DNA of 64,000 bases from the NCBI RefSeq assembly GCF_003334335.1, contig NZ_QOWQ01000003.1, one strand, 5' to 3'. The notes below the pieces were generated by a model. It saw only the letters and a program-made list of their open reading frames with translations, did no database searches and was not told where the DNA came from. The position numbers and the translations under genes are program-made. The stretch comes from Escherichia coli. Its GTDB lineage: Bacteria; Pseudomonadota; Gammaproteobacteria; Enterobacterales; Enterobacteriaceae. Position 1 is the stretch's first letter. The number at the start of each line of letters is the position of its first letter. This document shows positions 1-13,158 of the stretch, one piece after another.

Positions 1-76
1 ACGCGAGGCATCGTCTTAACGAGGCACCGAGGCGTCGCATTCTTCAGATGGTTCAACCCTTAAGTTAGCGCTTATG
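1..76 (+). mobile_element. IS186 (IS4 family) right end, partial at the window edge. The 23-bp terminal inverted repeat CAACCCTTAAGTTAGCGCTTATG lies at 54-76.
   Basis: Positions 1-76 match my recollection of the IS186 right end and finish in its terminal IR. The flanking target GGGTCAGGTCTCCCC fits the G-run/spacer/C-run target preference known for IS186. The terS-like reading frame loses its meaning exactly at 76/77. Confidence 0.75.
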
Positions 77-176
77 GGGTCAGGTCTCCCCGTTCCGCAA
101 GCTGCCGCGATTTTTCCCGCCACTGCTTCACGGCGATATCATCCAGGTAGGCGGGGGCTTTCGGTGGTCTTGCCAT
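77..176 (-). pseudogene. terS: 5' fragment (34 codons) of a P27-family small terminase gene, truncated by IS186.
   Basis: A minus-strand ATG at 174-176 (below the ORF-track size cut-off) gives MARPPKAPAYLDDIAVKQWREKSRQLAERGDLTP. This fits the N-terminal pattern of P27/Terminase_4 small terminases (RPPK, then L..A..W......L...G.LT). The frame runs straight into the IS186 IR, whose TAA (72-74) ends it. Confidence 0.55.
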
Positions 177-298
177 GCTTATTTTTCGTCAGATTATTTT
201 TCAAAAAATTCCCGTGCATAAAAATTTGGGGAGGCGTTCGGTGCCCGGCGGGGTCGGGTTTGTCCTGAAAACGCCCCCCACCCCGTCATACAGCCTCA

Positions 299-481
299 TC
301 AGCGATTGCGGAAACATTCCATAACCTCGCGGTCACGGTCGGTTAATCGCTTCGCTGTGATGCGTTCTGCGCGTCCTGACGCTTTATCTTTATGCCCTGT
401 TTCCTGTGTCTTCCATGCGTCACGCTGCCTTATAAGTCCACGGATAAGGCGGTTTTGTTCCCGCTCATTCATCAGCGTCAT
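299..481 (-). CDS. Hypothetical small protein (about 57-60 aa) between the HNH gene and terS.
   Basis: This is the 3' part of track ORF 299..703. An ATG at 481 (or 472) overlaps the HNH stop codon. The upstream part of the track ORF is just an alternative frame of the HNH gene. No family recognised. Confidence 0.35.
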   Translation of the reverse strand: MTLMNEREQNRLIRGLIRQRDAWKTQETGHKDKASGRAERITAKRLTDRDREVMECFRNR

Positions 482-905
482 ACATCCAGTTATTGCGGTT
501 AGCGGCCCGTTCTTCCTCTTCACGAAATCCACCTGCGGCACGCTTGCTTTTTGTTGCCGGATCAAGCCACTTCGTTTTCTGGTTATGACACGCCTGGCAC
601 AATGGCTGATGGTTCCATTCGGGCCAGAAGAGAACATCATCACCGCCATTAATCGGGATAATGTGATCCACCACCACGGCGGGCGTATATATCCCCTTCT
701 CAAGGCATCGCACGCATAACGGGTTTTTACTCAGATACATGGCGCGGTATTTTTCCCACTGTCTGGAGTACCCACGCGCGCGGCGGTGTCCTCGTCTGGC
801 ATCCTCTGCACGCCATGCCGCCCGCCTGTGCTCCTCACACTTGCCGGACTTAACGCGCCTGTTACAGCCTGGTTCTGTACATCGTCTTAATGGTTGCCAC
901 GGCAT
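465..905 (-). CDS. HNH endonuclease (packaging-associated).
   Basis: 146 aa with a Cys-rich N-terminus and an H-N-H core (VVDHIIPI ... WNHQPLCQACHNQKT). It sits immediately upstream of terS, as in HK97-like cos-packaging systems. Its start overlaps the preceding stop (ATGA). Confidence 0.85.
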   Translation of the reverse strand: MPWQPLRRCTEPGCNRRVKSGKCEEHRRAAWRAEDARRGHRRARGYSRQWEKYRAMYLSKNPLCVRCLEKGIYTPAVVVDHIIPINGGDDVLFWPEWNHQPLCQACHNQKTKWLDPATKSKRAAGGFREEEERAANRNNWMYDADE

Positions 906-1201
906 CAGTACACCCCCACATCACGGTAAGCCGTCCAGAGCGCGCCAATCGTCATGGGTACGCGCGTTTTTGCGTTATCCGCTACCAGCTGGCGATTCTC
1001 GTACAGGTGAGCGATAAACATCATGCAGCCAATCTTTATGGCTGGCGTGAACTCCAGCCCGTCATCAAAGCGCCTGCCTATATGTATCTGGCACGCCTCA
1101 AGCGATGCGGCAATGTATCCGCTGATTAACTGGTCTTCCTCGTCGCCATCGATGCGGCAATGGAGTTTCACTTCTTCCAGGGTGATAAGTTCTTCTGTCA
1201 T
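905..1201 (-). CDS. Head-tail connector protein (gp6-like, Phage_connect_1 type).
   Basis: 98 aa, MTEELITLEEVKLHCRIDGDEEDQLISGYIAA..., which is typical of gp6-like head-tail connector proteins. It is translationally coupled to both neighbours by 4-nt ATGA overlaps. Confidence 0.7.
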   Translation of the reverse strand: MTEELITLEEVKLHCRIDGDEEDQLISGYIAASLEACQIHIGRRFDDGLEFTPAIKIGCMMFIAHLYENRQLVADNAKTRVPMTIGALWTAYRDVGVY

Positions 1202-1536
1202 TTTTCCGCGCCCTCACGACAAAGAATTTCAAGGCGTGTCCTGGCGGCATCCGGCAGCGGTTGCCCGATGATATTCAGTACACGCCCCGCCAGCGGCCCC
1301 GTACTGACCTTTATCCGGCTGGTGGCGTTGATGTCCTTCCGGTACCGTATCCAGATCCTTACGGTACCAATCGCCAGCTCTGCACCCGATGAAATGGCCT
1401 CCTTGCTGCTGATCATGTTCACGCTTGCCCAGAGTGTGTGACCGTCCTCCCACGTTTCGAGTATTTCGCCGGTTATATCCCTGGTCTGTTTCAGGGTCTG
1501 AATCGTTACCCTGTCACGCAGTCGCCCTATGTTCAT
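1198..1536 (-). CDS. Head closure / head-tail adaptor protein (SPP1 gp16-like).
   Basis: Start taken at MNIGRLRDRVTIQ... (ATG 1534-1536, overlapping the portal stop). Length (112 aa) and the RDRVTIQ motif fit phage head-tail adaptor/head-closure proteins. Confidence 0.65.
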   Translation of the reverse strand: MNIGRLRDRVTIQTLKQTRDITGEILETWEDGHTLWASVNMISSKEAISSGAELAIGTVRIWIRYRKDINATSRIKVSTGPLAGRVLNIIGQPLPDAARTRLEILCREGAEK

Positions 1537-2744
1537 TCCGGTTTTTCTCCCTCGCTGATTTTTACTTCCTGTTTCCATGCCTGGCTGAACTCATCACCAC
1601 CATCACGCGGGGACAGCCCTTCACGTTCGCGGGCTTCGTTCGGGCACATAACGCCGGATTTGATGCCGCGTTCATAGGTGGCAAAGCGTTCGCCAGGTGT
1701 GGCCCGTAACAGGTCCGCGCTGTCAAACTCCACCTGATACCGGATACCAGGTACAGGCGAGGCCACCAGCAGGGCGTTTTTTATCTGCTGCTCAAAGTTC
1801 GCCAGCCACGGGCGCATTGTCATGGTGAGAAATGCGCGGCTTGCCTCGCTGAAATTGCTGTAGGTGCTGTTGCTGTATTCCTGCAGAAAAATCGGCGAGA
1901 CGTTGAACATTCGGGCGATGTCTTCAATGGTGAAGCGACGGGAGGCCAGCCATTCAGCATCCTGATTACTCATGCCCAGCTGCTGATAGCTCATACCCCC
2001 TTCAAGGATGGGCGTTTTTCCGGCGTTTCTGGCCCCTTTGTAGCGTTCCAGTGCGGCTAATGCCTGTTTGCCCTTCACGCCGTCCAGCCATTCGCCTGAC
2101 GTGATAACCCCTGCCGCCATCATGCCATCACGCATCACGCTCGCGCCGTGGCGTTGTTGGGCCAGCCCAAGCCCCAGCGATTCGCGGCAGATGGTTACAG
2201 GTGAGCGCCCCATAAAACCGTCATCCGTGGAGTAACGAAGGTGGAGAACCTCCCACGGTAAATAGTTGCGGGTGTTTCCGGTGTAGGCGTCAGTGATGCA
2301 GTAGCGCCAGTTGTGTTCGCCTGTCTGCTCCACGTTCACCGACTGCGGCGGGTAAGGATGTAAAGCCACCGGAAAACCATCACGCCCCCACTGAATCACC
2401 GCATAAGCATTACCGTTTAACAGGCAGTGGCGGATCATCATTCGCTTAAACTGGTAGGGAGTCTGCCACGCGTTCGGGCGCTCGTTGAGGATGTGATCGA
2501 CCGGATGAGAATCAAGCCACTCGCGGGCCTCCTTCCCCTTCTCATTGCGTACCAGGTACAGGTAACACGGCATGGTAGCCACCGCCTCAGAGATGACCGT
2601 CACGGCGTTCATGACGGCGGGCAGTGATTCCGCTGTCCCCGATGATACGTACTCACCCGCCCCCGTGTTCGATGTGCCAGCCAGCGCCATAAATTCATCA
2701 AGCGTCATGCTGCGCTGCTCTTTTTTTCTTCTGAAAAGCCACAT
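1533..2744 (-). CDS. Portal protein, HK97 family.
   Basis: 403 aa. The sequence and its position next to the prohead protease and HK97-type capsid gene fit HK97-family portals (Phage_portal). Confidence 0.85.
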   Translation of the reverse strand: MWLFRRKKEQRSMTLDEFMALAGTSNTGAGEYVSSGTAESLPAVMNAVTVISEAVATMPCYLYLVRNEKGKEAREWLDSHPVDHILNERPNAWQTPYQFKRMMIRHCLLNGNAYAVIQWGRDGFPVALHPYPPQSVNVEQTGEHNWRYCITDAYTGNTRNYLPWEVLHLRYSTDDGFMGRSPVTICRESLGLGLAQQRHGASVMRDGMMAAGVITSGEWLDGVKGKQALAALERYKGARNAGKTPILEGGMSYQQLGMSNQDAEWLASRRFTIEDIARMFNVSPIFLQEYSNSTYSNFSEASRAFLTMTMRPWLANFEQQIKNALLVASPVPGIRYQVEFDSADLLRATPGERFATYERGIKSGVMCPNEAREREGLSPRDGGDEFSQAWKQEVKISEGEKPE

Positions 2745-2745
2745 A

Positions 2746-3318
2746 TCACACCCCCGCTAAATCCACCCACCAGCGGCGATTATCCGCACGCGGCATTTTT
2801 TCGGGGTGCTGCTCATACAGGGAACGGCGGGCCAGCTCCACGCCGGAATCGGGGTAAGCCGGTACCGATGTAACGGTAATTTCGTACAGTTCCGCCACCA
2901 GCACGGTGCGCACGCATGGATCTGTTGTGGTATCCCATACATCCTTACGGGAGCGAAAGCCAAAGCTCATCCCCGAGATGTCCCCACGCTTAACCAGTTC
3001 GATAACGTCGCGCCCTGTACTGGTATCCGGTGGGGTCAGTTCAAAGCGTAACCCTGTTTCGTCCTCTTCCAGTTTCAGCGTGCCGGAACGGGTACGCCCC
3101 AGCAACATGCTGTGGTCATGCTCATACAGGCCGCGAACGTCATTACCCGCCGCAAGCCATTCAGTAAACGCTCCCCGCTGGAATTTTTCGTAAAACTCCC
3201 CCCATAGCAGCTCTGAAAGCTTATCCCAGCGAACAACGTAGCCTGTAAGCGTGTTGCTGGCGCTGGTGGTGATTTCCGATGACCGGATTTCCATACTCTT
3301 CATAATTTTTTCACCCAT
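2746..3318 (-). CDS. Prohead serine protease, HK97 family (Peptidase S78/U35).
   Basis: 190-aa track ORF. The more likely start is ATG 3303 (MKSMEIR, preceded by GGTGA). The family assignment rests on overall resemblance to HK97-family prohead proteases as I recall them and on its position between the capsid and portal genes. Confidence 0.85.
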   Translation of the reverse strand: MGEKIMKSMEIRSSEITTSASNTLTGYVVRWDKLSELLWGEFYEKFQRGAFTEWLAAGNDVRGLYEHDHSMLLGRTRSGTLKLEEDETGLRFELTPPDTSTGRDVIELVKRGDISGMSFGFRSRKDVWDTTTDPCVRTVLVAELYEITVTSVPAYPDSGVELARRSLYEQHPEKMPRADNRRWWVDLAGV

Positions 3319-3357
3319 AAAACACTAAAGGGGCTTTTAAGCCCCTTCTGTATGCTG

Positions 3358-4515
3358 TTAATCGTCGTCCTGTGGCAGTTCCAGAATCTTGATCGCGTTC
3401 GAATCCACCACGCCACCGCCTAAATATTTCTGCGTGAAAATTTTGATGAAGCCCGGCTCTGTGAGGTTGTCCGGTCTGGTGCGAACACCTGTTTCGTGAT
3501 CAACAATGTAGTAACCGCGTTTGAAGTCACCCAGGGCAATAACGTTATCAGGCATAAACTCCAGATATTCGACCGGAAGGCCCAGCAACGTATCAGGATC
3601 ACCCGCCTGTAAACGGTCACGCCAGATGTAATCACCGTTCGCGTTCTTCACCTTCTGGAGTTTTGCCGCCGTCGTGGAGTTAACCACCCAGACCGCGTTT
3701 TTGCGGTATTTTTTACGTAATGCAAATTTCAGGTCGATCAGCGGGTCCGCAGATGTCCACGCCAGAGATTCGGAAGGTTTAATTACCTGCAACGTACCAA
3801 AATCACGCTCTTTGTCGTTCTTCTCTGCACGGGGTACGGATAAAAAGCCTTTTGCTTTTTTGTCACCGTCGCCCACAACCAGATCGCTTTCTTCGGTTTC
3901 CGTGAAGGTGTCGCCAATCTCGCCCGTCAGCCATGAAAGGATGTCCACATCGGAAAAATCCACGATTTCCTGTGTGGTGCGCGGGTACGCATAGACCGGA
4001 TACAGCTTAATGCTCACCTCGTTAATCTGCGGGGTGCTGGTCTGTTCGCGTGTCTTACCCTCTTCACCGTGGTTAACGGTCGCACCGCCAGCGGAAACAA
4101 GCTGCTTAAACTCGTTGCTGCTGATTTTCTTCACGGTACAGATGCGGCGCATGGTGGATTCATCCGTCAGCATTCGCATGATTTCGGTGTTCAGTTCGGG
4201 GATAACGGTATAACCACCATCAGCGGGAACGCCTGTACTTAATGCGCGGGTTTCACCTGTCAGGATGTAGTTGCGGAGTTCTGCCGGGTCAGTGGTCTGG
4301 CTGCTTTTACCTGGCTTGCTGCGCTCTTCGTCTGCAATGGCTTCAAGGCGGGAAATGTCTTTATCGAGGGATTCAGCTTTAGCGCGTAATTCGTCAAATG
4401 TTGCGCCCTCAGCATCGTTAAGACTGCGGTTTTCTTTTTCCGCGTTCTCCAGCATGTCGCGCATCTGATTTTTAATGGCGGTTTTCTGCTGGCGTAATTC
4501 GATTATTCTCGGCAT
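3358..4515 (-). CDS. Major capsid protein, HK97 family, with an N-terminal scaffolding (delta) domain.
   Basis: 385 aa. A coiled-coil-rich N-terminal stretch of about 100 aa is followed by an HK97-fold-like body. This is typical of HK97-type capsid proteins that need no separate scaffold. Confidence 0.9.
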   Translation of the reverse strand: MPRIIELRQQKTAIKNQMRDMLENAEKENRSLNDAEGATFDELRAKAESLDKDISRLEAIADEERSKPGKSSQTTDPAELRNYILTGETRALSTGVPADGGYTVIPELNTEIMRMLTDESTMRRICTVKKISSNEFKQLVSAGGATVNHGEEGKTREQTSTPQINEVSIKLYPVYAYPRTTQEIVDFSDVDILSWLTGEIGDTFTETEESDLVVGDGDKKAKGFLSVPRAEKNDKERDFGTLQVIKPSESLAWTSADPLIDLKFALRKKYRKNAVWVVNSTTAAKLQKVKNANGDYIWRDRLQAGDPDTLLGLPVEYLEFMPDNVIALGDFKRGYYIVDHETGVRTRPDNLTEPGFIKIFTQKYLGGGVVDSNAIKILELPQDDD

Positions 4516-4554
4516 AAAAAAAGTCCTGGGGTTAAGTAAGGAACTCCAGGACGC
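4516..4554 (-). terminator. Terminator-like hairpin immediately upstream of the capsid ATG. Its 3' arm contains the capsid Shine-Dalgarno sequence.
   Basis: The minus-strand RNA reads GCGTCCTGG-AGTTCCTTACTTAACC-CCAGGAC-TTTTTTT-ATG. That is a 7-bp stem (4523-4529 / 4546-4552), a 16-nt loop and a U7 run. AGGA lies inside the 3' arm, 8 nt before the ATG. Confidence 0.45.
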
Positions 4555-4707
4555 GGCAAAAACTCAACCGTTTTTCATAAGGAAATCAGCAATCGCACCG
4601 ATCGTTTTCCCGCCTGGTAATGAATATTGGCGAGAACATTAACAGGCGGAAAAGTGGCCCCAGCGTCCTGGCACCACGGGCGAGAATAATCATGATTCAG
4701 TTCGGGT

Positions 4708-4755
4708 AAAATATGCCGATCCTGTCAGTGAACAACGTGGAACAACCGCGAACAA
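4708..4755 (-). promoter_or_regulatory. Candidate promoter of the packaging/capsid operon with three helically phased direct repeats.
   Basis: GAACAA on the plus strand (TTGTTC on the minus strand) occurs at 4730, 4740 and 4750, exactly 10 bp apart. The proximal copy sits at a -35 position, 16 bp from a TATTTT -10-like hexamer (4708-4713, minus strand). Confidence 0.35.
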
Positions 4756-4773
4756 ATAATTTACAAAAAATGA

Positions 4774-4796
4774 CAAAAAGCCGGATTGCTCCGGCT
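4774..4796 (-). terminator. Rho-independent terminator after the 74-aa orphan gene.
   Basis: Minus strand: AGCCGGA-gcaa-TCCGGCT followed by TTTTTGTCATTTTTT. Confidence 0.75.
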
Positions 4797-4806
4797 GTAT
4801 GCGTGC

Positions 4807-5031
4807 TCAGTCCCTGATCCCTTTCAGAAATTCTATCAATGCATCTATCTGTTCAGGATTTACCGCCAGCATTTCACCGGACAGAGCACATCTCACAAAA
4901 CCATGCTGATCCTTTTCAATCAGTGCGCCCGTCTCCAGGAATGCGCGGTAATCATTGATGCTCATCGTCTCCATGTTGTCAGCATGGTATTTATCACGCT
5001 GTTTTAATATCTCATCAAATTTCATCGGCAT
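4807..5031 (-). CDS. Hypothetical protein (74 aa) in a stand-alone cassette.
   Basis: Track ORF 4807..5109. The preferred start is ATG 5031 (MPMKFDEILK...), preceded by GAGGAAAA. It is bracketed by two near-identical terminators. No family recognised. Confidence 0.55.
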   Translation of the reverse strand: MPMKFDEILKQRDKYHADNMETMSINDYRAFLETGALIEKDQHGFVRCALSGEMLAVNPEQIDALIEFLKGIRD

Positions 5032-5125
5032 TGTTTTTTCCTCTGTTGTGTCTGTTTGTTTCAGATAGTAACTATGCCTGACCGTGACGAAAACCCGGTA
5101 ATGCGCCATACCGTTTCAACTGGTG

Positions 5126-5150
5126 CAAAAAAAGCCGGATTTCTCCGGCT
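5126..5150 (-). terminator. Rho-independent terminator after the perC-like gene.
   Basis: Minus strand: AGCCGGA-gaaa-TCCGGCT followed by TTTTTTTG. The stem is identical to the terminator at 4774-4796. Confidence 0.75.
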
Positions 5151-5156
5151 GTGTGA

Positions 5157-5429
5157 TTAGCTGTCCTGGTAATTTCGCCATATTTCATCACCAGCACCAT
5201 CCATACCCATTTCGGCATAAGTGCGATCGACCGCCTTTTTCAGGTCTCCGTAATTATCCGGCGGCTCCGGTGGCCTCTGTGCCTTCCTGGAACATTCCAG
5301 CCGTCGCATCGTAACCTGATGCCGTTCCTTGTCTGTCTCCACCAGCAGCATGACTTCACCCCATCGCGCCGACGCCCTCCGGTAAAAGCCTTTTGCCTCG
5401 AGTTCCTCCGCTATGCGGTCATGTACCAT
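5157..5429 (-). CDS. PerC-family transcriptional regulator-like protein (90 aa).
   Basis: Start taken at MVHDRIAEELEAKGFYRRASARWGEVM... (ATG 5427-5429, RBS GAGGGGG, 10 nt after the ssb stop). The AEELE..G.YRRA..RW.EV motif resembles PerC/Pch proteins. Confidence 0.6.
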   Translation of the reverse strand: MVHDRIAEELEAKGFYRRASARWGEVMLLVETDKERHQVTMRRLECSRKAQRPPEPPDNYGDLKKAVDRTYAEMGMDGAGDEIWRNYQDS

Positions 5430-5439
5430 CGTCACCCCC

Positions 5440-5850
5440 TCAGAACGGAATATCATCACCGTAGGGGTCATCGTCTCCCGCTGGTGGCTGATTACCCTGT
5501 GTGCCTGTGGTTTTGCGTCTGTTCCCGCCAGGACGTGCCGCACGGGCACTGATTACGCTGTCTGCAATAACCTGATACCCCTGTCGTGTTTCCCCGTTCT
5601 GTCCGGTCCACTGGCTTACCTGCATCGTGCCGGATACGCTGGCAACATCGCCTTTTTGATGTTTAGCCAGGAAATCGGCCTGTTTGCCAAATGCGATAAC
5701 CGATAACCATAACGTCGCCTGTCCGTCATGTGCTTGGCTGCATGGCAACGATACCGCCATACGCGCCAGAGTCATCGGTGTGCCCTTGCTGCTCTGTTTT
5801 ACCAGCGGGTCGTCCACCAGGCGCCCGTAAGCTGCAATTTGTGCTGTCAT
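5440..5850 (-). CDS. ssb: Single-stranded DNA-binding protein.
   Basis: 136 aa with an OB-fold-like N-terminus, a Gly/Pro/Gln-rich linker and the diagnostic acidic tail DDDPYGDDIPF. Confidence 0.9.
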   Translation of the reverse strand: MTAQIAAYGRLVDDPLVKQSSKGTPMTLARMAVSLPCSQAHDGQATLWLSVIAFGKQADFLAKHQKGDVASVSGTMQVSQWTGQNGETRQGYQVIADSVISARAARPGGNRRKTTGTQGNQPPAGDDDPYGDDIPF

Positions 5851-5859
5851 ATTGCCACC

Positions 5860-6165
5860 TCAGTGAAGCGATCCGGCGTTGTTCTTTTTCATCTCTTCCA
5901 TCATTTTTTCAGTGAGCATTACGCACTGAAAACCCATGTTTTTGATGTCTACGGGTTTCATGCCTTTGTCAGTGGATATCACAGGCAGAATATCCTGATA
6001 CACATCGCGGTCAGGGTAACTAAGCACACAAAGCGCCCATGATGCCACGGGTGAGGATCCTTCGTCTGTTTCAACCCACCAGCCTGGTGTAGCTGCGCTT
6101 ATTTGCTGAATCGTGATCCGTCCGTTGTGCTTGTAAAGTTTTTCACCAAATTTTGGTTCGCTCAT
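5860..6165 (-). CDS. Hypothetical protein (101 aa).
   Basis: Track ORF in the same operon. Its start overlaps the upstream stop by 4 nt (6162-6165). No family recognised. Confidence 0.5.
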   Translation of the reverse strand: MSEPKFGEKLYKHNGRITIQQISAATPGWWVETDEGSSPVASWALCVLSYPDRDVYQDILPVISTDKGMKPVDIKNMGFQCVMLTEKMMEEMKKNNAGSLH

Positions 6166-6413
6166 GATTCCAACTCTCCGGTTTTAACGTTGATTGTTGT
6201 TACCTGTTCCGCTTCGGCAATCTCACGTTCTGTCAGCGTGGCAAAGTTTGCCGCTGCTGTGGTCATGAATGCGCTTATCAGGTCGGGATGTTCTTTCGCG
6301 TATCCTTCCCCCGCGTGGCGGTCTATCGTTCTGATTGCCACCTTTAAGGCGTGCTCTGTCATGTCTAACGCTTTATATTTTGGCTCTGTTCTGTCTCTGT
6401 GTTTTTGAGTCAT
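6162..6413 (-). CDS. Hypothetical protein (83 aa).
   Basis: Track ORF 6162..6545. The start is moved to ATG 6413 (MTQKHRDR...) because the upstream 44 codons lie in the iteron array. Confidence 0.45.
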   Translation of the reverse strand: MTQKHRDRTEPKYKALDMTEHALKVAIRTIDRHAGEGYAKEHPDLISAFMTTAAANFATLTEREIAEAEQVTTINVKTGELES

Positions 6414-6617
6414 TTGCCCACCTCTACCCACTTTTTTCGCCCACTTTTTACGTTTTCCCACTTCGTCCAACGTGGGAAATTTGGGATTTATATCATCTTG
6501 TTTCATAGGTATTTTTTTAGTGCCCACTTTTTGGGATATATACACGTGGGAAAGTGGGTAATTTTGTTAAAATTACGTTAAATCGCCCACCTTTCCCACT
6601 TTTAATGCCCACTTTTT
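6414..6617. repeat. Iteron array, the probable satellite origin of replication.
   Basis: There are 11 copies of the core CCCAC(T/C)TT. Eight are direct (about 6416, 6427, 6439, 6456, 6522, 6585, 6594, 6607), several as GCCCACTTTTT. Three are inverted (6472, 6546, 6554). They flank an AT-rich spacer (6480-6521). The array starts on the stop codon of the rep helicase gene. Confidence 0.7.
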
Positions 6618-8013
6618 ACAGTGGTCCTACATCATCACCGTCAATGTAGATCACGTCGTCTTTTTCCAGTTTGGCTAACCATCGTTTAAGGTGTTTTGTG
6701 TCATACCCCAGCTTTTTCATATCGTCACGTAACAGCGGGATCGTGCACTTGTCGCCGTGCTGTGTGCGTGAACGTATGCACCCCCATAGCGCGGTATGGT
6801 TTTCCGTCTTGTTGCCTGCCTCCTCGATGCGCTCCAGTTCAACGGGAGGGCGCGGCTTATCCACCACCACCAGCGACGTGATTAACTCCCCGTCAGCGTC
6901 GGTAAAAAGCTCCACCACCCGCAAATCATAGGCAGCCTCTTTGAGTTCCTCCGCGTCCTTCATTTTGGTGCATGAGATAACCAGCGCTTCGCTTCCTGCG
7001 TCCTCCCTGCGTATCCGGTATTCAGCATCCAGCGAAGCACGAAATGCACTGGAACCGCGCGCGCCTTTCGTCTCATCCTTGCCGGAATGGTGAACCACCA
7101 GCACCGTGGCCCCTGTGCGCCGTTTAAGCTCGTCACACCCACGGATAAACGCCCCCATATCACGGGAATCATTTTCATCATTGCCACCAAAGCAACGCGC
7201 CAGAGTATCAAGAATAATCATGCGTACAGGTTTACCCGTTTCCCGCTCCACCTGACGGGCAGCGATAACCAGTTCATCAACATCAAGCGGGACAGCCGGA
7301 AAAACTGGACGGTTTACCAGATACAGATTTTTCACCTGCTCACCGTGCACAACCTCCCAGGCTTTTACACGACGCGGAACGCCGATACCGCCTTCACCAA
7401 CCACATAGAGAACAGCGCCATGCGCCACCCTGCGGCCTCCCCACTGGCGGCCCGTGGAAACGTGACACGCCCACGAACCCGCAAGGAATGATTTATAGGA
7501 ACCGCTTGCCCCGTATATGCTGCATAGCGACGATGCCGGAATAATCCCCTTTACCACGTAATCTAATTGCGTGTCGTATCCGGCAGATCCAACGCTCATC
7601 GGTAGCGTGGTTTTTCGCTGGTGGTGTTCTTCCCCTGGCTTTTTCCCCCGCTCCCGTTCCAGATATTCGCGCCAGTTCTCCCGCTTCTGGCTGTGTATCC
7701 CTTCGGGGTAATAATTCGCATCAGTTACGCCCGCCGCCGCCAGCTTGTGCGCAATGGCATTAATATTTGATGGCCTGATGTGGCCTGCCTTGTACAGCCG
7801 GACACAATAGCGCCCCTCGTCGATGATTCTCAGGTCTGCCAGTTCATCCAGTTGATCATCAGCCAGCACAATGGGAGGCACATTATCGCCAGCCAGTCGC
7901 CCGTCCTGTTCCTGCCACTGTTTCGCATGTGCCCACGCATCACTACCCGCAAAAATGATGACTTCGGTCATCTTGTCGTAAGGCTGTTTTTTTAAGTTCG
8001 GTGCGCTTTTCAT
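6616..8013 (-). CDS. Replication initiator/helicase, RepA-like (AAA_25 / RecA-fold ATPase).
   Basis: 465 aa with Walker A GASGSYKS and Walker B MIILD, followed by VVHHSGKDETKGARGSS, typical of RepA/AAA_25 helicases of plasmids and satellites. I could not recognise a primase (toprim/EGYATA) motif in the N-terminal 150 aa. Confidence 0.8.
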   Translation of the reverse strand: MKSAPNLKKQPYDKMTEVIIFAGSDAWAHAKQWQEQDGRLAGDNVPPIVLADDQLDELADLRIIDEGRYCVRLYKAGHIRPSNINAIAHKLAAAGVTDANYYPEGIHSQKRENWREYLERERGKKPGEEHHQRKTTLPMSVGSAGYDTQLDYVVKGIIPASSLCSIYGASGSYKSFLAGSWACHVSTGRQWGGRRVAHGAVLYVVGEGGIGVPRRVKAWEVVHGEQVKNLYLVNRPVFPAVPLDVDELVIAARQVERETGKPVRMIILDTLARCFGGNDENDSRDMGAFIRGCDELKRRTGATVLVVHHSGKDETKGARGSSAFRASLDAEYRIRREDAGSEALVISCTKMKDAEELKEAAYDLRVVELFTDADGELITSLVVVDKPRPPVELERIEEAGNKTENHTALWGCIRSRTQHGDKCTIPLLRDDMKKLGYDTKHLKRWLAKLEKDDVIYIDGDDVGPL

Positions 8014-8309
8014 TTCTTGCCCCTGAATCCGTTAATCATGTTTTTCATCTTCTGAATATTGGCGCGTGCTTTCTCCCTGCTGGTGGGCACGTTACGCGGT
8101 ACGGCCTGCACCAGAGAAAAATCACGCCGGAACTGATAAACAGGCATCACGCAATCATATTCGTAACTTTCACGACGGTAGGTTACGCGCCGTTCCTCCA
8201 CGCCCTTAATCATTACCGTGCCGCCGTACTGGTCGCGGTAAATATCACCGCGCGTAAATTTAGGGTGAGTGTTGCCACTGGCAGTTAAGCCAGAATATTT
8301 AAGTTTCAT
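8010..8309 (-). CDS. Small protein (99 aa), possibly DUF4222-like.
   Basis: Track ORF whose stop overlaps the rep start (8010-8013). The central YRD..G..V.I..V...RVTYRRE.YE..CVMP...F motif resembles prophage DUF4222 proteins. The family call is tentative. Confidence 0.5.
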   Translation of the reverse strand: MKLKYSGLTASGNTHPKFTRGDIYRDQYGGTVMIKGVEERRVTYRRESYEYDCVMPVYQFRRDFSLVQAVPRNVPTSREKARANIQKMKNMINGFRGKK

Positions 8310-8314
8310 TATTT

Positions 8315-8548
8315 TTATTCTCCGGTGTGCTGTTCGTTATATCTGTCGTGCAATGTCTCTATTTCTTGTAGTTCCATTATTACAGGCTCAAGAAGCGTTA
8401 TTAATGCCGTGACAATTCTTGATTTTTGTTTGTCGCGTTCATTGTCGCCAAGTGTTTCAAGCCATATGCGCAATATTTCCAGCATGTTTTCACTGTGAGA
8501 AAGTGCAAGAAATACGCGTTCTGTTGTTTCGTGGTAAATATCACGCAT
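8315..8548 (-). CDS. Hypothetical protein (77 aa).
   Basis: Track ORF in the co-oriented early operon. No family recognised. Confidence 0.45.
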   Translation of the reverse strand: MRDIYHETTERVFLALSHSENMLEILRIWLETLGDNERDKQKSRIVTALITLLEPVIMELQEIETLHDRYNEQHTGE

Positions 8549-8620
8549 GGCTTACATCCTCAGGAAATTTTCTTCTGTAACGCGCCTCTGCCACATATTC
8601 CGCATAATCGGCGGCGATAT

Positions 8621-8773
8621 TCAGTACATCAAGCCCGTTGATTTATATTCTCTCGTGGAAAGTAAGAAAAAAGCCGCTCTAATAAGTTCTGGCATTGACG
8701 AAAGCGCATCAGCCGCATCATCAGGAACGCCGGAAAATTCTTGTTTCAGGGAATTAAAACGATCATCACGCAT
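8621..8773 (-). CDS. Hypothetical protein (about 50 aa).
   Basis: Track ORF 8621..8821. The start is placed at MRDDRF (ATG 8773), which overlaps the upstream stop (ATGCGTGA). Weak call. Confidence 0.3.
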   Translation of the reverse strand: MRDDRFNSLKQEFSGVPDDAADALSSMPELIRAAFFLLSTREYKSTGLMY

Positions 8774-8996
8774 AACCCCCCCCATTTTCACAATCAGCAA
8801 CAAGAATATTTTTAGCGTCATTCAGCGACCGCGTTGCGGTGTATCGGATACATTCCAGGGCGAATAGTGTGTATTCTTCCCTTTCTTCCCTTTCTTCCTT
8901 TTGTGCAAGCTCTGCTGTGCATTCAATATCAATAAGCGCGTGCATCAGCGTAGTGAGTGCGGCGGCGGCTGCGTCCGGTGTGGTTTTATTGCACAT
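8766..8996 (-). CDS. Hypothetical acidic protein (76 aa).
   Basis: Track ORF 8766..9050. The start is placed at MCNKTT (ATG 8996), preceded by GGAGGGG. It contains an EEREEREE acidic stretch. Confidence 0.4.
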   Translation of the reverse strand: MCNKTTPDAAAAALTTLMHALIDIECTAELAQKEEREEREEYTLFALECIRYTATRSLNDAKNILVADCENGGGYA

Positions 8997-9216
8997 GTAC
9001 CCCTCCGCATTTTTTTTCGTTAGAAATAAGCGTTCTTCTTTCCTGTTCATCGATCAGGAATACGCAGACCTCACCGCTAAGGCGTTTAAGTAAGCCGATG
9101 ATTGCCCCTGATTCGCTGTCGGTCATCATGCCTGGGTAATCCTCTGCCAGTGCGCAAATAACTTCGATTTGGTGGGCGCGTTCTGCTGCCTGTTGTAGTG
9201 TGATTTCCTGGCTCAT
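8986..9216 (-). CDS. Hypothetical protein (76 aa).
   Basis: Track ORF. Its ATG overlaps the stop of the icd-like gene (ATGA at 9213-9216). Confidence 0.45.
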   Translation of the reverse strand: MSQEITLQQAAERAHQIEVICALAEDYPGMMTDSESGAIIGLLKRLSGEVCVFLIDEQERRTLISNEKKCGGVHVQ

Positions 9217-9413
9217 AAGCCTACCCCCTGACGAATACGGGCAGCGAATACCATCACGCAGCCAGCCGGGGATTGCAGGCGTGCTTCCTGTTCGCTGGTG
9301 GCCTCAATGGTAATCACGCGCGGTTGTGCAGTGCTCAGGGCGATAAAACGCCAAATGTATTTATTCAGGTTGTGCGAGTCCCGCCCTTGCGGGTGTGTGG
9401 TATGATTTCTCAT
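9213..9413 (-). CDS. Icd-like (P4-type cell division inhibitor-like) small protein, 66 aa.
   Basis: These are the last 66 codons of the 340-aa track ORF (MRNHTTHPQGRDSHNLNKYIWRFIAL...), with a GAGG RBS. They resemble proteins annotated as Icd-like in P4-like elements, as I recall them. This is the first gene downstream of the leftward promoter. Confidence 0.55.
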   Translation of the reverse strand: MRNHTTHPQGRDSHNLNKYIWRFIALSTAQPRVITIEATSEQEARLQSPAGCVMVFAARIRQGVGL

Positions 9414-9510
9414 AGCTACCTCGATACTCTCGTTATCGTTGGTGGTTAGAAGCCCGGTTAGTGTTAGCGCACTGCCGGGTTTCGTCGTTTCTGCACCTTG
9501 CGCCAACAAG

Positions 9511-9583
9511 GTGTTGAACACCAATTTAAACCCAGGTGTTAAACACGTCAAGTGTTGAACACTTATTTTTTTTCCTGCATACT
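9511..9583. promoter_or_regulatory. Back-to-back divergent promoters with three 11-bp palindromic operators.
   Basis: GTGTTGAACAC lies at 9511-9521, GTGTTAAACAC at 9536-9546 and GTGTTGAACAC at 9552-9562. The leftward promoter has -35 TTGACG (9546-9551) and -10 TAAATT (9523-9528) with a 17-bp spacer. The rightward promoter has -35 TTGAAC (9555-9560) and -10 CATACT (9578-9583) with a 17-bp spacer. Confidence 0.6.
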
Positions 9584-9612
9584 GCATTTGTTTTTTATGA
9601 GGGGTACACCAC

Positions 9613-9792
9613 ATGGCGACAAAAGCAGTAAACGCAAAATCACAAACCGTTGCGGCAAGGGTTCCGCATGAAGTTATGAACAATGTTGAGGCGGTAAAAA
9701 TGCCTGGCGAAAGTACGGGGCAATTTGTTACTGCAGCATTAAAACGAGAAGTTGAATATCGCCAGCGGCGCAAGGCCAAAGAACCAGAGTAA
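9613..9792 (+). CDS. Ribbon-helix-helix (CopG/Arc-like) DNA-binding protein, 59 aa. Candidate satellite repressor.
   Basis: Not in the ORF track (<60 aa). ATG at 9613 with GAGGGG upstream. MATKAVNAKSQTVAARVPHEVMNNVEAVKMPGESTGQFVTAALKREVEYRQRRKAKEPE shows the strand / helix / G-x-S-x / helix pattern of RHH proteins. It is the only plus-strand gene next to the operators. Confidence 0.55.
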   Translation: MATKAVNAKSQTVAARVPHEVMNNVEAVKMPGESTGQFVTAALKREVEYRQRRKAKEPE

Positions 9793-9849
9793 TCACCATC
9801 AGCGCCGTGGTGTAAGGTATTACGGCGCATTGCTATGCAGGACAACACA

Positions 9850-10023
9850 ATGACCGATAAAGAATTGACCAAAACATTATCACCGGCACGGAAAAGACGG
9901 CGCAGAAAGATAGAGCATGAATCAGAAAGATTCGCGCCATGTGCTTTTGCCCTTGAGCAATTCCTTAAAGAGTACAGGGAAAAGCGCTCATTGCAGGTAT
10001 GGCAACGAACTGAACCAGACTGA
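9850..10023 (+). CDS. Hypothetical basic protein (57 aa).
   Basis: Track ORF 9835..10023. ATG 9850 has AGGA 7 nt upstream. It carries an RKRRRRK stretch and is co-oriented with the RHH gene, before a strong terminator. Confidence 0.35.
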   Translation: MTDKELTKTLSPARKRRRRKIEHESERFAPCAFALEQFLKEYREKRSLQVWQRTEPD

Positions 10024-10118
10024 TAGCATTGCCCACCAGCCTGATAGCGACTATCATTGCCGTTCTTATGTTTGGGATCACACACACAAACGGCGCAGCG
10101 GGTTATCTGTTCAGAAAG

Positions 10119-10146
10119 GCGGCTCCATTTCGGGGCCGCTTTTTTT
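10119..10146 (+). terminator. Rho-independent terminator of the short rightward (RHH) transcription unit.
   Basis: GCGGCTCC-atttc-GGGGCCGC (8-bp stem with one G-U pair) followed by TTTTTTT. Confidence 0.75.
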
Positions 10147-10292
10147 ATACCTGAAAAACCCCAATTTTGTTGTTTTTCAGTTTCACCAGGGCGAACGAAT
10201 CCCCGCCCACGTTCTGGCGTATATTCAATCTTCATGGTTATAGCTCTGTGTTCAGATGATTGATGTGTGGCGGCTGCGTGCCGCCAGCGTGA

Positions 10293-10481
10293 TTAATGAA
10301 CTGCCTTGCAGCTATCCTTCCAGGCCAGAACCTCGGATAAAGACCAGCCAACGGAACGACCGCCAAGTTTACGACGTGATGGGAATTGTCCGGCCTTTTC
10401 CAGGCGGTAGCGACACGTACGGCTAAGGCCGGTTAGTTTTTCGCATTCTTTTTCACGTATAAACCGATCAGTGCTTAACAC
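10293..10481 (-). CDS. alpA: AlpA-family (MerR-type HTH) phage/satellite transcriptional regulator.
   Basis: The C-terminal 62 aa read LSTDRFIREKECEKLTGLSRTCRYRLEKAGQFPSRRKLGGRSVGWSLSEVLAWK, a classic AlpA signature. The likely start is GTG 10481, preceded by AGGGGGG. The track ORF extends to ATG 10562. Confidence 0.8.
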   Translation of the reverse strand: MLSTDRFIREKECEKLTGLSRTCRYRLEKAGQFPSRRKLGGRSVGWSLSEVLAWKDSCKAVH

Positions 10482-10632
10482 TATTGCCCCCCTTTCGTTT
10501 CTTAAAGAGTCATCAGGTGTCTTATTGTGTCGTATTGTTCCCGCTAGAGTGATGAATGGCAAATATTGAGGATGTATTATTTACAGAAAATGAAACAGTA
10601 AGAATAAAATCTTTTAAATTCATGTTAATACA

Positions 10633-10665
10633 AAGGCATAAAATATTGTTTCATGCCTTTTTTTT
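10633..10665 (+). terminator. Orphan terminator-like hairpin on the plus strand in the int-alpA intergenic region.
   Basis: AAGGCATAAAA-tattg-TTTCATGCCTT (one mismatch) followed by a T-run ending at 10665. No plus-strand gene lies upstream, so the function is unknown. Confidence 0.4.
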
Positions 10666-10813
10666 CGCTCTTTAAAGAGTGATTCGCTAGTGTATAAAAA
10701 ACCAGTGACACATTAAAAATCAGCCACTTATAAATCTGTATGCTTTTTCGCCTCTTGTTCGTGGTTGTTCCACATTGTTGCTCATTGTTGCACGTTGTAT
10801 CTGTTCGCATATC

Positions 10814-10829
10814 CAGTATGCGCATACTG
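10814..10829. promoter_or_regulatory. Perfect 16-bp palindrome CAGTATGCGCATACTG just downstream of int. Candidate protein-binding site.
   Basis: The palindrome is seen directly. No U-run follows on either strand, so it is not a canonical terminator. Confidence 0.3.
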
Positions 10830-10846
10830 AAAAAACACGAAAAAAA

Positions 10847-12076
10847 TTATTTTCTTCTGGCTACGGGTAGCGTGGTTACGTTTTCATGTGTTCCCGCCAG
10901 TATCCCTAACCGCTCCGTCCACATATCCAGCGCATTGCGTTTAGCATCCAGATAACGGGAATGATTATAAACTCGCTGCATTCCTGGCATCTGGTGGCCT
11001 GTAAGCTGCTCCACGACATGCGGATCAACGCCTAAATCGTTCAGCATGGTTGTAAAGGTGCGCCGGATGTCATGCAGTGACCAGTGAGGATGATTAAGCC
11101 TCCTGTGCGCTAATCTTCCATACTGCGATACGCTGGCCTCCTGTTTCACTTCCCCCAGCAATAAGCCCGTGTGCCTGTTCTGCTCCACCAGCTGCGTGAC
11201 GAACGGCAGGATCGCTTCCGGTATGGGCCGGAATATTGCGACCTTCGTTTTGCTGTGCTCCTTCGGAACGGTCCATAGCATTTCCGTAAAATCCCACTCC
11301 CCGATCTCCGATAACCTCAGTTCTACCGTTCTGGCTCCGAAGACAATCAGGAGGCGGATTAACGCGACGTAGTAAGGGGAGAATATTTTTTTGTCCAGTG
11401 CCTGCAATAATTCGCCAAGTTCTTTGTTACTTAAGACACGTTCGCTTATATCCGGTTTTTTCCCAACGTCCGCCACGTTCAGATCGTCCAGAACGTTGCT
11501 GATTGCATAGCGCCGCCTACGGCAGAACTTAAGCGCCTGTTTGCACGCCTGTAGCACGAATCCGGCAGTAACAGGCGTTCGCTTTGCCACCTGGTCAAAA
11601 CAGGCCAGCCAGTGCCGTAGCTCGCATTTATCCAGCGGCATAGCACCAATCTGCTGTATTACGTGATTATTAAGTCGCCTTTTCAGGGCGATATAATCCA
11701 CGCGGTTTTCCTTTACGTAATACTCAAGCCAGTAGGTGAGCGCATCGCCAACCGTTACGGGCTTTAACGCTTCCTGTACGGTGTAATTCATCTCATGACG
11801 TGGATTTTTCCCCTCAGCCAGCCATGTGCGACACTGTGCGGCTTTTTCCCTGGCTGCTTTCAGGCTCAGATCAGGATAACTTCCCAGCTTAATGCGTTCG
11901 GGTCGTGTCTCCCTTCCCGTTCCGGCCCTGTATGTGAAATACCAGGTCAATTTCCCTGATGTTAAATATTTCACGCTCAGGTTTCCGCCATCACTATAAA
12001 ACGTGTTTTTCTCCGCTGGCTTACCATGAAGTTTCCTTAGCAAGGTATCGCTCAGTTTGTTCATTGCTCTGCTCAC
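10847..12076 (-). CDS. int: Tyrosine integrase, P4-like (DUF4102 N-terminal domain).
   Basis: 409 aa. It has tyrosine-recombinase catalytic-type motifs (GARTVELR, HDIRRT, YNHSRY). The GTG start at 12076 is preceded by GAGGGGG. It lies adjacent to the junction with tqsA. Confidence 0.92.
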   Translation of the reverse strand: MSRAMNKLSDTLLRKLHGKPAEKNTFYSDGGNLSVKYLTSGKLTWYFTYRAGTGRETRPERIKLGSYPDLSLKAAREKAAQCRTWLAEGKNPRHEMNYTVQEALKPVTVGDALTYWLEYYVKENRVDYIALKRRLNNHVIQQIGAMPLDKCELRHWLACFDQVAKRTPVTAGFVLQACKQALKFCRRRRYAISNVLDDLNVADVGKKPDISERVLSNKELGELLQALDKKIFSPYYVALIRLLIVFGARTVELRLSEIGEWDFTEMLWTVPKEHSKTKVAIFRPIPEAILPFVTQLVEQNRHTGLLLGEVKQEASVSQYGRLAHRRLNHPHWSLHDIRRTFTTMLNDLGVDPHVVEQLTGHQMPGMQRVYNHSRYLDAKRNALDMWTERLGILAGTHENVTTLPVARRK

Positions 12077-12099
12077 GTTTTACCCCCTCTTTACGAAAA

Positions 12100-12123
12100 A
12101 GTGACTACACCAGTGACTACACC
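12100..12123. repeat. Tandem 12-bp repeat AGTGACTACACC x2 between int and the att junction. Candidate integrase arm-type sites.
   Basis: Exact tandem duplication seen at 12100-12111 and 12112-12123, within the 175 bp that separate the int start from the tqsA junction. Confidence 0.4.
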
Positions 12124-12251
12124 GATCGTTGCACAAAGGGCTACAACGTGAAACAAGCTGGAACAAGGAAAATCACAAATCTGTTGATAATCAAAAACAT
12201 AATGCACAGCCTGAAACATTATGAAACAGCAAAAAACACTAAATGATAAAA

Positions 12252-13158
12252 TGCTGTTATTCTTAACCCGCTGGTGCAACACATGGTCCGCTGGCGTGTG
12301 CCGCGTGTACTGGCGGTGTCGATTTTGATGACCATCATCGTGATGGCGATGGTGTTGCTATTAGCTTATCTGGGTTCCGCGCTCAACGAGTTGACGCGGA
12401 CGTTACCGCAATATCGCAACTCTATTATGACGCCGCTGCAAGCGCTTGAAGCGTTGTTGCAACGCGTAGGGATTGACGTCTCAGTTGACCAGCTGGCGCA
12501 TTATATTGATCCGAACGCGGCGATGACGTTGCTCACCAACTTATTGACGCAGTTATCTAATGCCATGTCATCAATATTTTTATTGCTGCTGACGGTGCTG
12601 TTTATGCTGCTCGAAGTGCCACAATTGCCCGGAAAATTTCAGCAAATGATGGCGCGTCCGGTTGAAGGGATGGCGGCGATTCAACGTGCGATTGACAGTG
12701 TTTCTCATTATCTGGTGCTGAAAACAGCCATCAGCATCATCACCGGCCTGGTCGCCTGGGCGATGCTCGCCGCACTCGATGTTCGCTTCGCTTTTGTCTG
12801 GGGATTGCTGGCCTTTGCGCTTAATTACATCCCGAATATTGGTTCAGTCCTCGCGGCAATCCCCCCTATCGCTCAGGTACTGGTGTTTAATGGCTTCTAC
12901 GAAGCGTTGCTGGTGCTGGCGGGATATCTGCTGATTAATCTGGTCTTCGGCAATATTCTGGAGCCGCGTATCATGGGGCGTGGGCTGGGGCTTTCCACAT
13001 TGGTGGTATTTTTGTCGTTGATTTTTTGGGGATGGTTGTTAGGACCGGTGGGTATGCTGCTTTCCGTGCCGTTGACAATTATTGTCAAAATTGCGCTTGA
13101 ACAAACAGCGGGAGGTCAAAGCATCGCCGTTCTGTTAAGCGATCTCAATAAAGAGTGA
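12252..13158 (+). pseudogene. tqsA: tqsA (AI-2 exporter, AI-2E family), 5'-truncated by the satellite insertion.
   Basis: From 12253 the frame reads [22 protein letters not shown]... to the normal C-terminus ...VLLSDLNKE, matching K-12 TqsA from about residue 44 onward. An in-frame TAA lies at 12247-12249 with non-homologous island DNA upstream. Only a GTG (12274) or ATG (12283) restart is available. Confidence 0.85.

Follow-up and report, generated by a model that had tools for sequence, protein, structure and literature searches.

Introduction

Phage-inducible chromosomal islands of the capsid-forming type (cf-PICIs), described in 2022-2023, are a family of phage satellites defined experimentally on EcCIEDL933, a 15.4-kb island of Escherichia coli O157:H7 EDL933, and their capsid structure has been solved. 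Induction of EcCIEDL933 is AlpA-dependent and triggered by the helper phages HK106 and HK446, with AlpA expression required for induction and transfer alike; knock-out of each gene of the packaging module, terS included, abolishes transfer and not replication. Its transfer needs only tails from the helper, and its adaptor and closure (connector) proteins set which helper tails fit. The capsid, a T=4 shell of 47.5 nm with the HK97 fold and cleavage at residue 93, fits about 15.5 kb and excludes the 41.5-kb helper genome; EcCIEDL933 packages cos DNA, and cf-PICI DNA has cohesive ends. By detection software, cf-PICIs have been reported in 13% of Enterobacteriaceae genomes. Here we analyze a 64,000-nucleotide (nt) stretch of E. 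coli contig NZ_QOWQ01000003.1 (assembly GCF_003334335.1; the window), whose positions 77-12260 we identify, with high confidence, as a cf-PICI of the EcCIEDL933 lineage, inserted by a P4-type integrase at a 9-bp core in tqsA and, as far as the window shows, cut short in terS by the insertion sequence (IS) IS186/IS421.

The maintenance side of such an island resembles that of the classical Gram-negative PICIs (EcCICFT073, EcCIED1a) and of P4, which share with it a P4-type integrase, AlpA-dependent induction logic, Icd-like and PerC-like genes, a 10-15 kb size range and the need for a helper phage; EcCIEDL933's int, alpA and rep were reported to be identical to those of classical PICIs, and a PerC-family gene is a common accessory of Gram-negative PICIs. 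However, classical PICIs and P4 redirect or remodel helper capsids and are without capsid, portal, protease, adaptor and terL genes, of which the window holds all but terL. With phages HK97 and HK106, cf-PICIs have in common a capsid of the HK97 fold whose delta domain is cleaved by a protease, a cos terminase that depends on HNH, and the Ad1 and Hc1 proteins, whereas those phages have genomes of about 40 kb, T=7 heads, tails, lysis and immunity genes, and the gene order terS-terL-portal-protease-capsid-Ad1-Hc1. Published comparison found low protein identities between HK97/HK106 and cf-PICIs, and no phage genome with more than six homologs of EcCIEDL933, mostly at <40% identity.

Comparison with EcCIEDL933

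EcCIEDL933 lies in NZ_CP008957.1 at about 1,680.2-1,695 kb, between roxA and phoQ. Its packaging module is 97.9% identical in DNA to window positions 76-5861, a result that bears out the proposal of an initial annotation, made from the sequence alone, that the block is a tail-less satellite encoding its own HK97-type heads and a member or relative of the cf-PICIs. The two share the same genes in the same order (capsid, protease, portal, closure, adaptor, HNH, a 60-amino-acid (aa) open reading frame (ORF) and terS), as well as the leader, the box and the terminator-like hairpins described below. Protein identities to EcCIEDL933 reach 100% for AlpA, the 60-aa ORF and the terS stub, and are 99.7% for capsid, 99.3% for portal, 99.0% for adaptor, 98.9% for protease, 98.6% for HNH and 96.4% for closure. 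The capsid protein matches both the EDL933 protein and PDB entry 9gyi ('Major head protein', four chains) at 384 of 385 residues, the sole difference being T39K; residue 39 is K in EDL933, and hence 9gyi carries the EDL933 sequence. Its cleavage motif, STGVPAD, begins at residue 93 and fits the published motif SxGxxAD.

All substantial genes of 77-12260 lie on the minus strand. In profile searches of the ORFs against Pfam, PHROGs and NCBIfam, with matches well above curated thresholds, the maintenance genes of the initial annotation (integrase, AlpA, Icd-like, RepA-like, SSB) and its head and packaging set, from capsid to the start of terS, all matched their families strongly at the positions in Table 1. 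Its gene list held up as far as it went, and left unlisted the 60-aa ORF, the PerC-family and DUF4222 genes and a frameshifted accessory gene. The ORFs at 1533-4515, for which it had named a lack of detectable homology as grounds for rejection, strongly match portal, protease and capsid families, and the start-stop overlaps that it had noted along the portal-to-HNH genes are present in ATGA/TGATG form. No ORF in 77-12260 matches tail, baseplate, tape-measure, holin or endolysin/lysis families in the Pfam and PHROGs scans, in agreement with the absence of tail and lysis genes that it had reported.

Table 1. Features of the island block and of its two ends, in window coordinates.
Feature	Position	Strand	Evidence or remark
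Right end of IS186/IS421 (IS4-family) insertion sequence	1-76	.	IS body upstream of window start
terS start, P27 family, first 33 codons	77-176	-	100% identical to N-terminus of 118-aa terS
Intergenic stretch, 60-aa ORF to terS	177-298	-	position
60-aa ORF	299-481	-	100% identical to EDL933 ORF between HNH and terS
HNH endonuclease, cofactor of HK97-type terminases in packaging	465-905	-	PF01844 1.8e-8; phrog_144 8.6e-45
gp6-like head-tail adaptor (Ad1)	905-1201	-	PF05135 1.9e-11; phrog_40; TIGR01560
Head closure protein (Hc1), the 'head-tail connector' of cf-PICI papers	1198-1536	-	PF05521 5e-23; phrog_25; TIGR01563
HK97-family portal	1533-2744	-	PF04860 9e-91; TIGR01537; phrog_12
HK97-family prohead serine protease (S78)	2746-3318	-	TIGR01543 5e-53; PF04586 4e-48
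HK97-fold major capsid protein	3358-4515	-	TIGR01554 1.6e-87
Untranslated capsid-operon leader, 263 nt	4516-4778	-	conserved box and three conserved hairpins
Conserved box TTTTGTAAATTATTTGT	4752-4768	-	promoter-like, with TAAATT -10-like hexamer
Terminator-like hairpin AGCCGGAGCAATCCGGCT and T run, after 74-aa ORF	4779-4796	-	
74-aa ORF	4807-5031	-	phrog_1957; 100% identical in EDL933
Terminator-like hairpin AGCCGGAGAAATCCGGCT and T7, after perC	5133-5150	-	near-duplicate of 4779-4796
PerC-family regulator	5157-5429	-	PF06069 2.7e-44
SSB	5440-5850	-	PF00436 6.5e-16; phrog_44
Two small ORFs: 101 aa (5860-6165), 83 aa (6162-6413)	5860-6413	-	phrog_27268 and phrog_1231
Iteron cluster	6425-6617	.	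six exact and several degenerate CCCACTTT copies, both orientations, directly 3' of repA
RepA-family AAA_25 replicative helicase, 465 aa	6616-8013	-	PF13481 1.7e-44; phrog_2850 full length
DUF4222 ORF	8010-8309	-	profile match
77-aa ORF	8315-8548	-	
Frameshifted phrog_2512 accessory gene	8621-9050	-	split into 94-aa and 66-aa ORFs
76-aa ORF	8986-9216	-	
Icd-like protein (host cell division inhibitor family)	9213-9413	-	NF033153 3.3e-18; phrog_6196
AlpA	10293-10481	-	PF05930 1.5e-16
P4-type tyrosine integrase	10847-12076	-	PF13356 (Arm-DNA-bind_3) and PF00589 (Phage_integrase)
attR core TGCTGTTAT, 9 bp, junction with 3' part of tqsA	12252-12260	.	comparison of empty site with attL/attR

SatelliteFinder defines a cf-PICI by 11 core components, with tails and holins forbidden. 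Judging these components here with Pfam and PHROGs profiles, we find the integrase, the AlpA regulator, a primase-replicase component, capsid, protease, portal, adaptor, connector and HNH; the terS component is represented by codons 1-33 only, up to the IS end, and is complete in 99.94%-identical copies. The position of terL would fall past the window start; the rest of the window lacks this gene, which intact relatives possess. With P4-like satellites, recognized by the capsid-size and late-control genes Psu, Sid and Delta and by an alpha primase, the element has the integrase, AlpA and Icd-like genes alone in common; general scans with Pfam and PHROGs gave no ORF matching any of these four families. 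The portal, adaptor and connector, all present, set it apart from classical PICIs of the EcCICFT073 type, and the tail, lysis and immunity modules and ~40-kb genome of an HK97-like temperate prophage are found neither in the block nor in its 15-kb att-bounded relatives.

The differences from EcCIEDL933 are of a modular kind. In place of the DUF927 primase (710 aa) of EcCIEDL933, the window element encodes a RepA AAA_25 helicase (465 aa) and carries iterons of its own, and the accessory ORFs between icd and DUF4222 differ. The integrases are 91% identical; the window integrase uses a site inside tqsA and that of EcCIEDL933 the roxA-phoQ site. Finally, terS is cut by IS186 in the window copy, unlike in EcCIEDL933.

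The order of the head genes, which the initial annotation had described as the reverse of that of HK97 phages, proved to be so in part. Against the HK106 reference order (terS, terL, portal, protease, capsid, Ad1, Hc1 ... HNH), the capsid-protease-portal and closure-adaptor blocks are each reversed while staying on the same strand, but HNH-terS-terL is collinear with the circular phage map, as it is with HK97. This arrangement is the published conserved organization of proteobacterial cf-PICIs, in which capsid-protease-portal-connectors are followed by hnh-terS-terL. Within it, the 60-aa ORF, which has no Pfam or PADLOC match, would by position be the counterpart of EcCIEDL933 'gene 1792', if the gene numbering is read correctly; mutation of gene 1792 severely reduces transfer. 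The intergenic stretch next to it likely holds a putative cos site, by analogy with HNH-dependent cos packaging of the HK97 type. We additionally observed a terminator-like hairpin between the capsid and protease genes (3327-3348, minus strand), which may set the capsid-to-protease ratio; for comparison, terminators are annotated in HK106 downstream of both portal and capsid.

Boundaries and intact relatives

To define the right end, we compared the window with an empty tqsA site (strain 98-3133; L003) and with both att sites, attL and attR, found in strain H19. The island splits tqsA 144 nt into the gene, and the 3' ORF (12274-13158, plus strand) is without about 40 N-terminal profile positions, its match to the AI-2E transporter family starting at profile position 40. 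Empty tqsA sites occur in other strains, and tqsA was previously listed among the genes disrupted, and controlled in their integrity, by integrative elements. The flanking chromosome is that of an ordinary E. coli at 99.9-100% identity (pntAB, rstAB, tus, fumCB, manA, uidABC, rsx and neighbors).

Among 5426 complete E. coli genomes, about 160 contain the island block at a coverage of at least 80%, and identity reaches 97% at best. The index of the assembly collection lists the identical portal protein in 475 blocks, and an exact look-up of it returned ten intact loci, all in tqsA. Two of these copies, L005 (GCA_041727335.1) and L012 (GCA_014141135.1), both from draft genomes, are 99.94% identical to the window over 76-12400 (5-6 substitutions, 1-2 indels); they have attR and the flanking genes in common with the window copy but lack the IS. 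Past the terS junction they continue with the rest of a 118-aa terS, terL (553 aa; 526 aa in L012), a 93-aa ORF, ~0.7 kb of non-coding DNA and attL, beyond which lie the tqsA 5' stub, ydgV and mdtJI. Both are bounded by TGCTGTTAT repeats in tqsA, giving units of 15,109 bp (L005) and 15,027 bp (L012), alongside 15,282 bp in H19 (L001), and no tail, lysis or holin genes were found between attL and attR of the intact relatives. The initial annotation had pointed to tail and lysis genes beyond IS186 as the mark of an ordinary prophage fragment; none follow terS in the 99.94%-identical intact copies, which answers the point for the lineage and not for the window genome itself.

The terS junction

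The left boundary in the window is the end of an IS and not an att site. Elements annotated in RefSeq as IS4-like, IS421-family transposase have ends that match positions 1-76 at 100% identity, the 46-nt IS186 terminal repeat is exact at 31-76 (0 expected by chance), and likeness to cf-PICI relatives begins at base 76. terS is thereby interrupted at codon 34, and the frame stops one codon into the IS; its N-terminus is identical at 33 of 33 residues in strains H19, O157:H7 and EDL933 and in locus L005. A search for a relocated terS or terL in the window matched only a 69-nt terS stub. In the intact copy the IS target reads GGGGGTCAGGTCTCCCC, and the junction has the shape GGGG-N8-CCCC. IS186 prefers GGGG(N6-7)CCCC targets; the resemblance is a lead and not a test. 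If the IS186 is a simple insertion, an IS of ~1.3 kb flanked by a duplicated GGGGTCAGGTCTCCCC-type target is expected, and the unit would grow from 15.1 to about 16.4 kb.

The terS inactivation is the only feature specific to the window copy. This copy is most likely unable to package itself, because terS is cut after codon 33 and terS knock-outs of EcCIEDL933 abolish transfer. In a look-up of the 34-aa TerS fusion we found five draft contigs, all ending within 3 nt of the window junction (GGGGGTCAGGTCTCCCC); the five assemblies (L087-L091) are unrelated cf-PICI carriers with different replication modules. They suggest a possible recurrent hot spot for IS or repeat insertion in terS.

Replication and accessory genes

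The RepA-type helicase is the replication initiator of the satellite. Directly after its stop codon, all six exact copies of CCCACTTT in the 64-kb window fall within 6427-6615, compared with 2.0 expected over the whole window, and the region holds repeat families D1-D3, D10, D13 and I1-I6. As the initial annotation had anticipated for the DNA beside the RepA-like gene, this iteron cluster is the probable replication origin. Among tqsA-integrated cf-PICIs with an identical portal (L010, L011 and L087 compared with the window) there are at least two replication modules, with either the RepA AAA_25 helicase or a D5_N/DUF5906 primase, and the DUF927 primase of EcCIEDL933 makes a third; the comparison shows frequent and free swapping of replication modules in this lineage.

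The two small ORFs downstream of the iterons have no Pfam or PADLOC match, and PADLOC likewise matched no defense gene among the small ORFs. The annotation of strain H19 shows the phrog_2512 frameshift as well, and L007 has the gene intact at 148 aa. We discarded a 340-aa ORF at 9213-10235 as a real long protein; just its last 66-88 residues match a family (Icd-like), and its N-terminal 250 aa look non-coding. A search for known RNA families (Rfam) in 1-12400 returned just one sub-threshold match, resembling the antitoxin RNA SymR (9414-9486, plus strand; E = 0.004, with 33 bits where the gathering score is 61). The match is probably due to chance; it falls in the variable stretch between alpA and icd, antisense to the DNA immediately upstream of the start codon of the icd-like gene.

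The capsid-operon leader

Between the replication and packaging modules, the initial annotation had reported two terminators and a structured leader, and both features were recovered. The terminators correspond to near-identical terminator-like hairpins (AGCCGGAGAAATCCGGCT and AGCCGGAGCAATCCGGCT) that differ at one position and lie on either side of the 74-aa ORF, an arrangement that would fit the duplication or insertion of a small cassette between perC and the leader. The leader itself folds better than 200 of 200 shuffles (z = -3.6). Its last hairpin, which looks like a terminator (GTCCTGG...CCAGGAC, then U7), overlies the AGGA ribosome-binding site and stops 7 nt short of the ATG, the U7 run of this window-type leader ending at the ATG.

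We compared the DNA upstream of capsid genes in the window (4516-4800, minus strand) and in loci L015, L016-L020 and L028-L076, comprising 26 distinct relatives with 66-100% capsid identity, among them loci from Rosenbergiella, Citrobacter, Erwinia and Gilliamella genomes and IMG/VR contigs. A box containing TTTGTAA occurs once, 220-260 nt before the capsid ATG, in 26 of the 26. The leaders fall into at least two sequence types, both hairpin-rich and both ending in a hairpin over the ribosome-binding site; the divergent leader of L074 keeps the stems with its loops replaced, and the second type keeps the long central hairpin with 3-5 compensatory pairs. Overall covariation is weak; its term is about 0 in each of the two alignments, owing to the high similarity among close relatives.

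Several possible origins of this region were considered and set aside. A BLAST search of 50,697 phage records with the leader as query returned nothing at an E-value <0.3, and the leader has no DNA similarity to HK97 or HK106, which speaks against its having been borrowed from helper phages. The pR' region of HK106 shares only the TAAATT hexamer with the box, and the lone 3-mismatch HK106 match to the box is at chance level; no link to the late promoter of the helper was found. In the window and in EDL933, a look-alike of the box stands ~100 nt upstream of alpA; it is missing from L016, L020, L072, L074 and L076, and a common box serving a shared regulator was likewise dismissed.

Tentatively, the box, the hairpin leader and the hairpin burying the Shine-Dalgarno site may together form a dedicated, conserved region that gates the capsid operon in proteobacterial cf-PICIs, an idea that we put forward with more doubt than confidence. 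Two cf-PICI preprints, from which the words promoter and terminator are absent, do not mention such a region, which may be described in other literature.

Discussion

The island in tqsA is an already known element, belonging to a named family that has been characterized experimentally and structurally, and to the prototype's own lineage. Nothing in its sequence contradicts the assignment. Certain points do weigh against it or narrow its reach. The window starts inside the IS, so that either a simple insertion or a deletion of the rest of terS, terL and attL would fit; the exact 58-nt IS186/terS junction has 0 matches in a collection of species-representative genomes and in metagenome contigs; and one accessory gene (phrog_2512, 8621-9050) is frameshifted. 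Furthermore, the RepA AAA_25 module and the integrase specificity differ from those of EcCIEDL933, and the helper range and inducibility of the tqsA variant are accordingly extrapolations from the prototype.

Could the block instead be what is left of a decayed HK97-like prophage that is not a satellite and has lost the genes for tail, lysis and immunity? HK97 and HK106 do have head and packaging proteins of the same families, and the window copy is visibly damaged by an IS, yet its intact relatives are complete, att-bounded units of 15.0-15.3 kb, and at least 160 complete genomes, as well as other genera, contain this set of genes. The gene order unlike that of HK97/HK106, the maintenance genes of PICI/P4 type (int, alpA, icd, repA) and the published count of at most six EcCIEDL933 homologs per phage genome, mostly below 40% identity, argue against a prophage origin as well, and EcCIEDL933 is by experiment an autonomous, tail-dependent satellite; we consider decay of a prophage very improbable. 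A P4-like satellite, or a PICI of the EcCICFT073 type, that remodels helper capsids and merely sits next to head genes would account for the P4-type integrase, AlpA, Icd-like and PerC genes, and for the reported identity of the EcCIEDL933 int, alpA and rep genes with those of classical PICIs. However, the head genes lie within the same att-bounded unit and on the same strand, no match to Psu, Sid or Delta came from the general scans, and the PICI model of SatelliteFinder treats portal, adaptor and connector as 'forbidden' for the very reason that they mark cf-PICIs, which leaves this explanation every bit as improbable as the previous one.

A separate matter is whether this cf-PICI copy could still move. 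Had IS186 inserted simply, leaving the 3' part of terS, terL and attL intact, TerS might be supplied by a second cf-PICI or restored by precise loss of the IS. The GGGG-N8-CCCC junction resembles simple transposition, although this is again a lead and no test; every gene other than terS is full length, with a product 96-100% identical to a functional EcCIEDL933 protein; and genomes with several satellites exist. Against this stand the abolished transfer of EcCIEDL933 terS knock-outs, a unit that with the IS would measure about 16.4 kb for a capsid suited to about 15.5 kb, the lack of a second cf-PICI in the 64-kb window, and a left side that lies beyond the window start. Continued mobility through trans-complementation is thus possible but unsupported, and on balance we think it unlikely.

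For an intact element, the cycle is experimentally shown in EcCIEDL933, and near-identity suggests that the window lineage would follow it. A helper phage would switch on alpA, upon which the island would excise and replicate from its iteron origin by means of its own RepA-type helicase and SSB. Expression of the capsid operon (capsid, protease, portal, closure, adaptor, HNH, the 60-aa ORF, terS and terL) would then allow small T=4 heads of the HK97 fold to assemble, into which the island's own HNH-TerS-TerL would package roughly 15 kb of cos DNA, and tails made by the helper would be joined through the island's adaptor and closure proteins. By analogy, the 96-100% protein identity to EcCIEDL933 suggests that the window element is built for small capsids of its own making, for packaging only itself, and for needing nothing but tails from the helper. 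As it stands, the window copy would at most excise, replicate and make empty heads; self-packaging and transfer would require TerS in trans, plus TerL if that gene is lost.

For annotation, the block is best labeled a cf-PICI (EcCIEDL933-like, tqsA-integrated, terS::IS186) and not a prophage remnant, and tqsA, the gene for the autoinducer-2 (AI-2) exporter, should be recorded as disrupted in this strain. The discovery value is small, the element being common, named and structurally solved and this copy damaged. The box and leader are a candidate handle on the control of capsid-operon expression, a lead and not a result; if the proposal is true, the control region would be the site where a helper or island factor, be it an antiterminator, an activator or a translational de-repressor, licenses capsid production. 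For researchers of satellites, the window copy may also be of use as a naturally occurring terS::IS186 knock-out, whose insertion site may be one that IS elements hit repeatedly.

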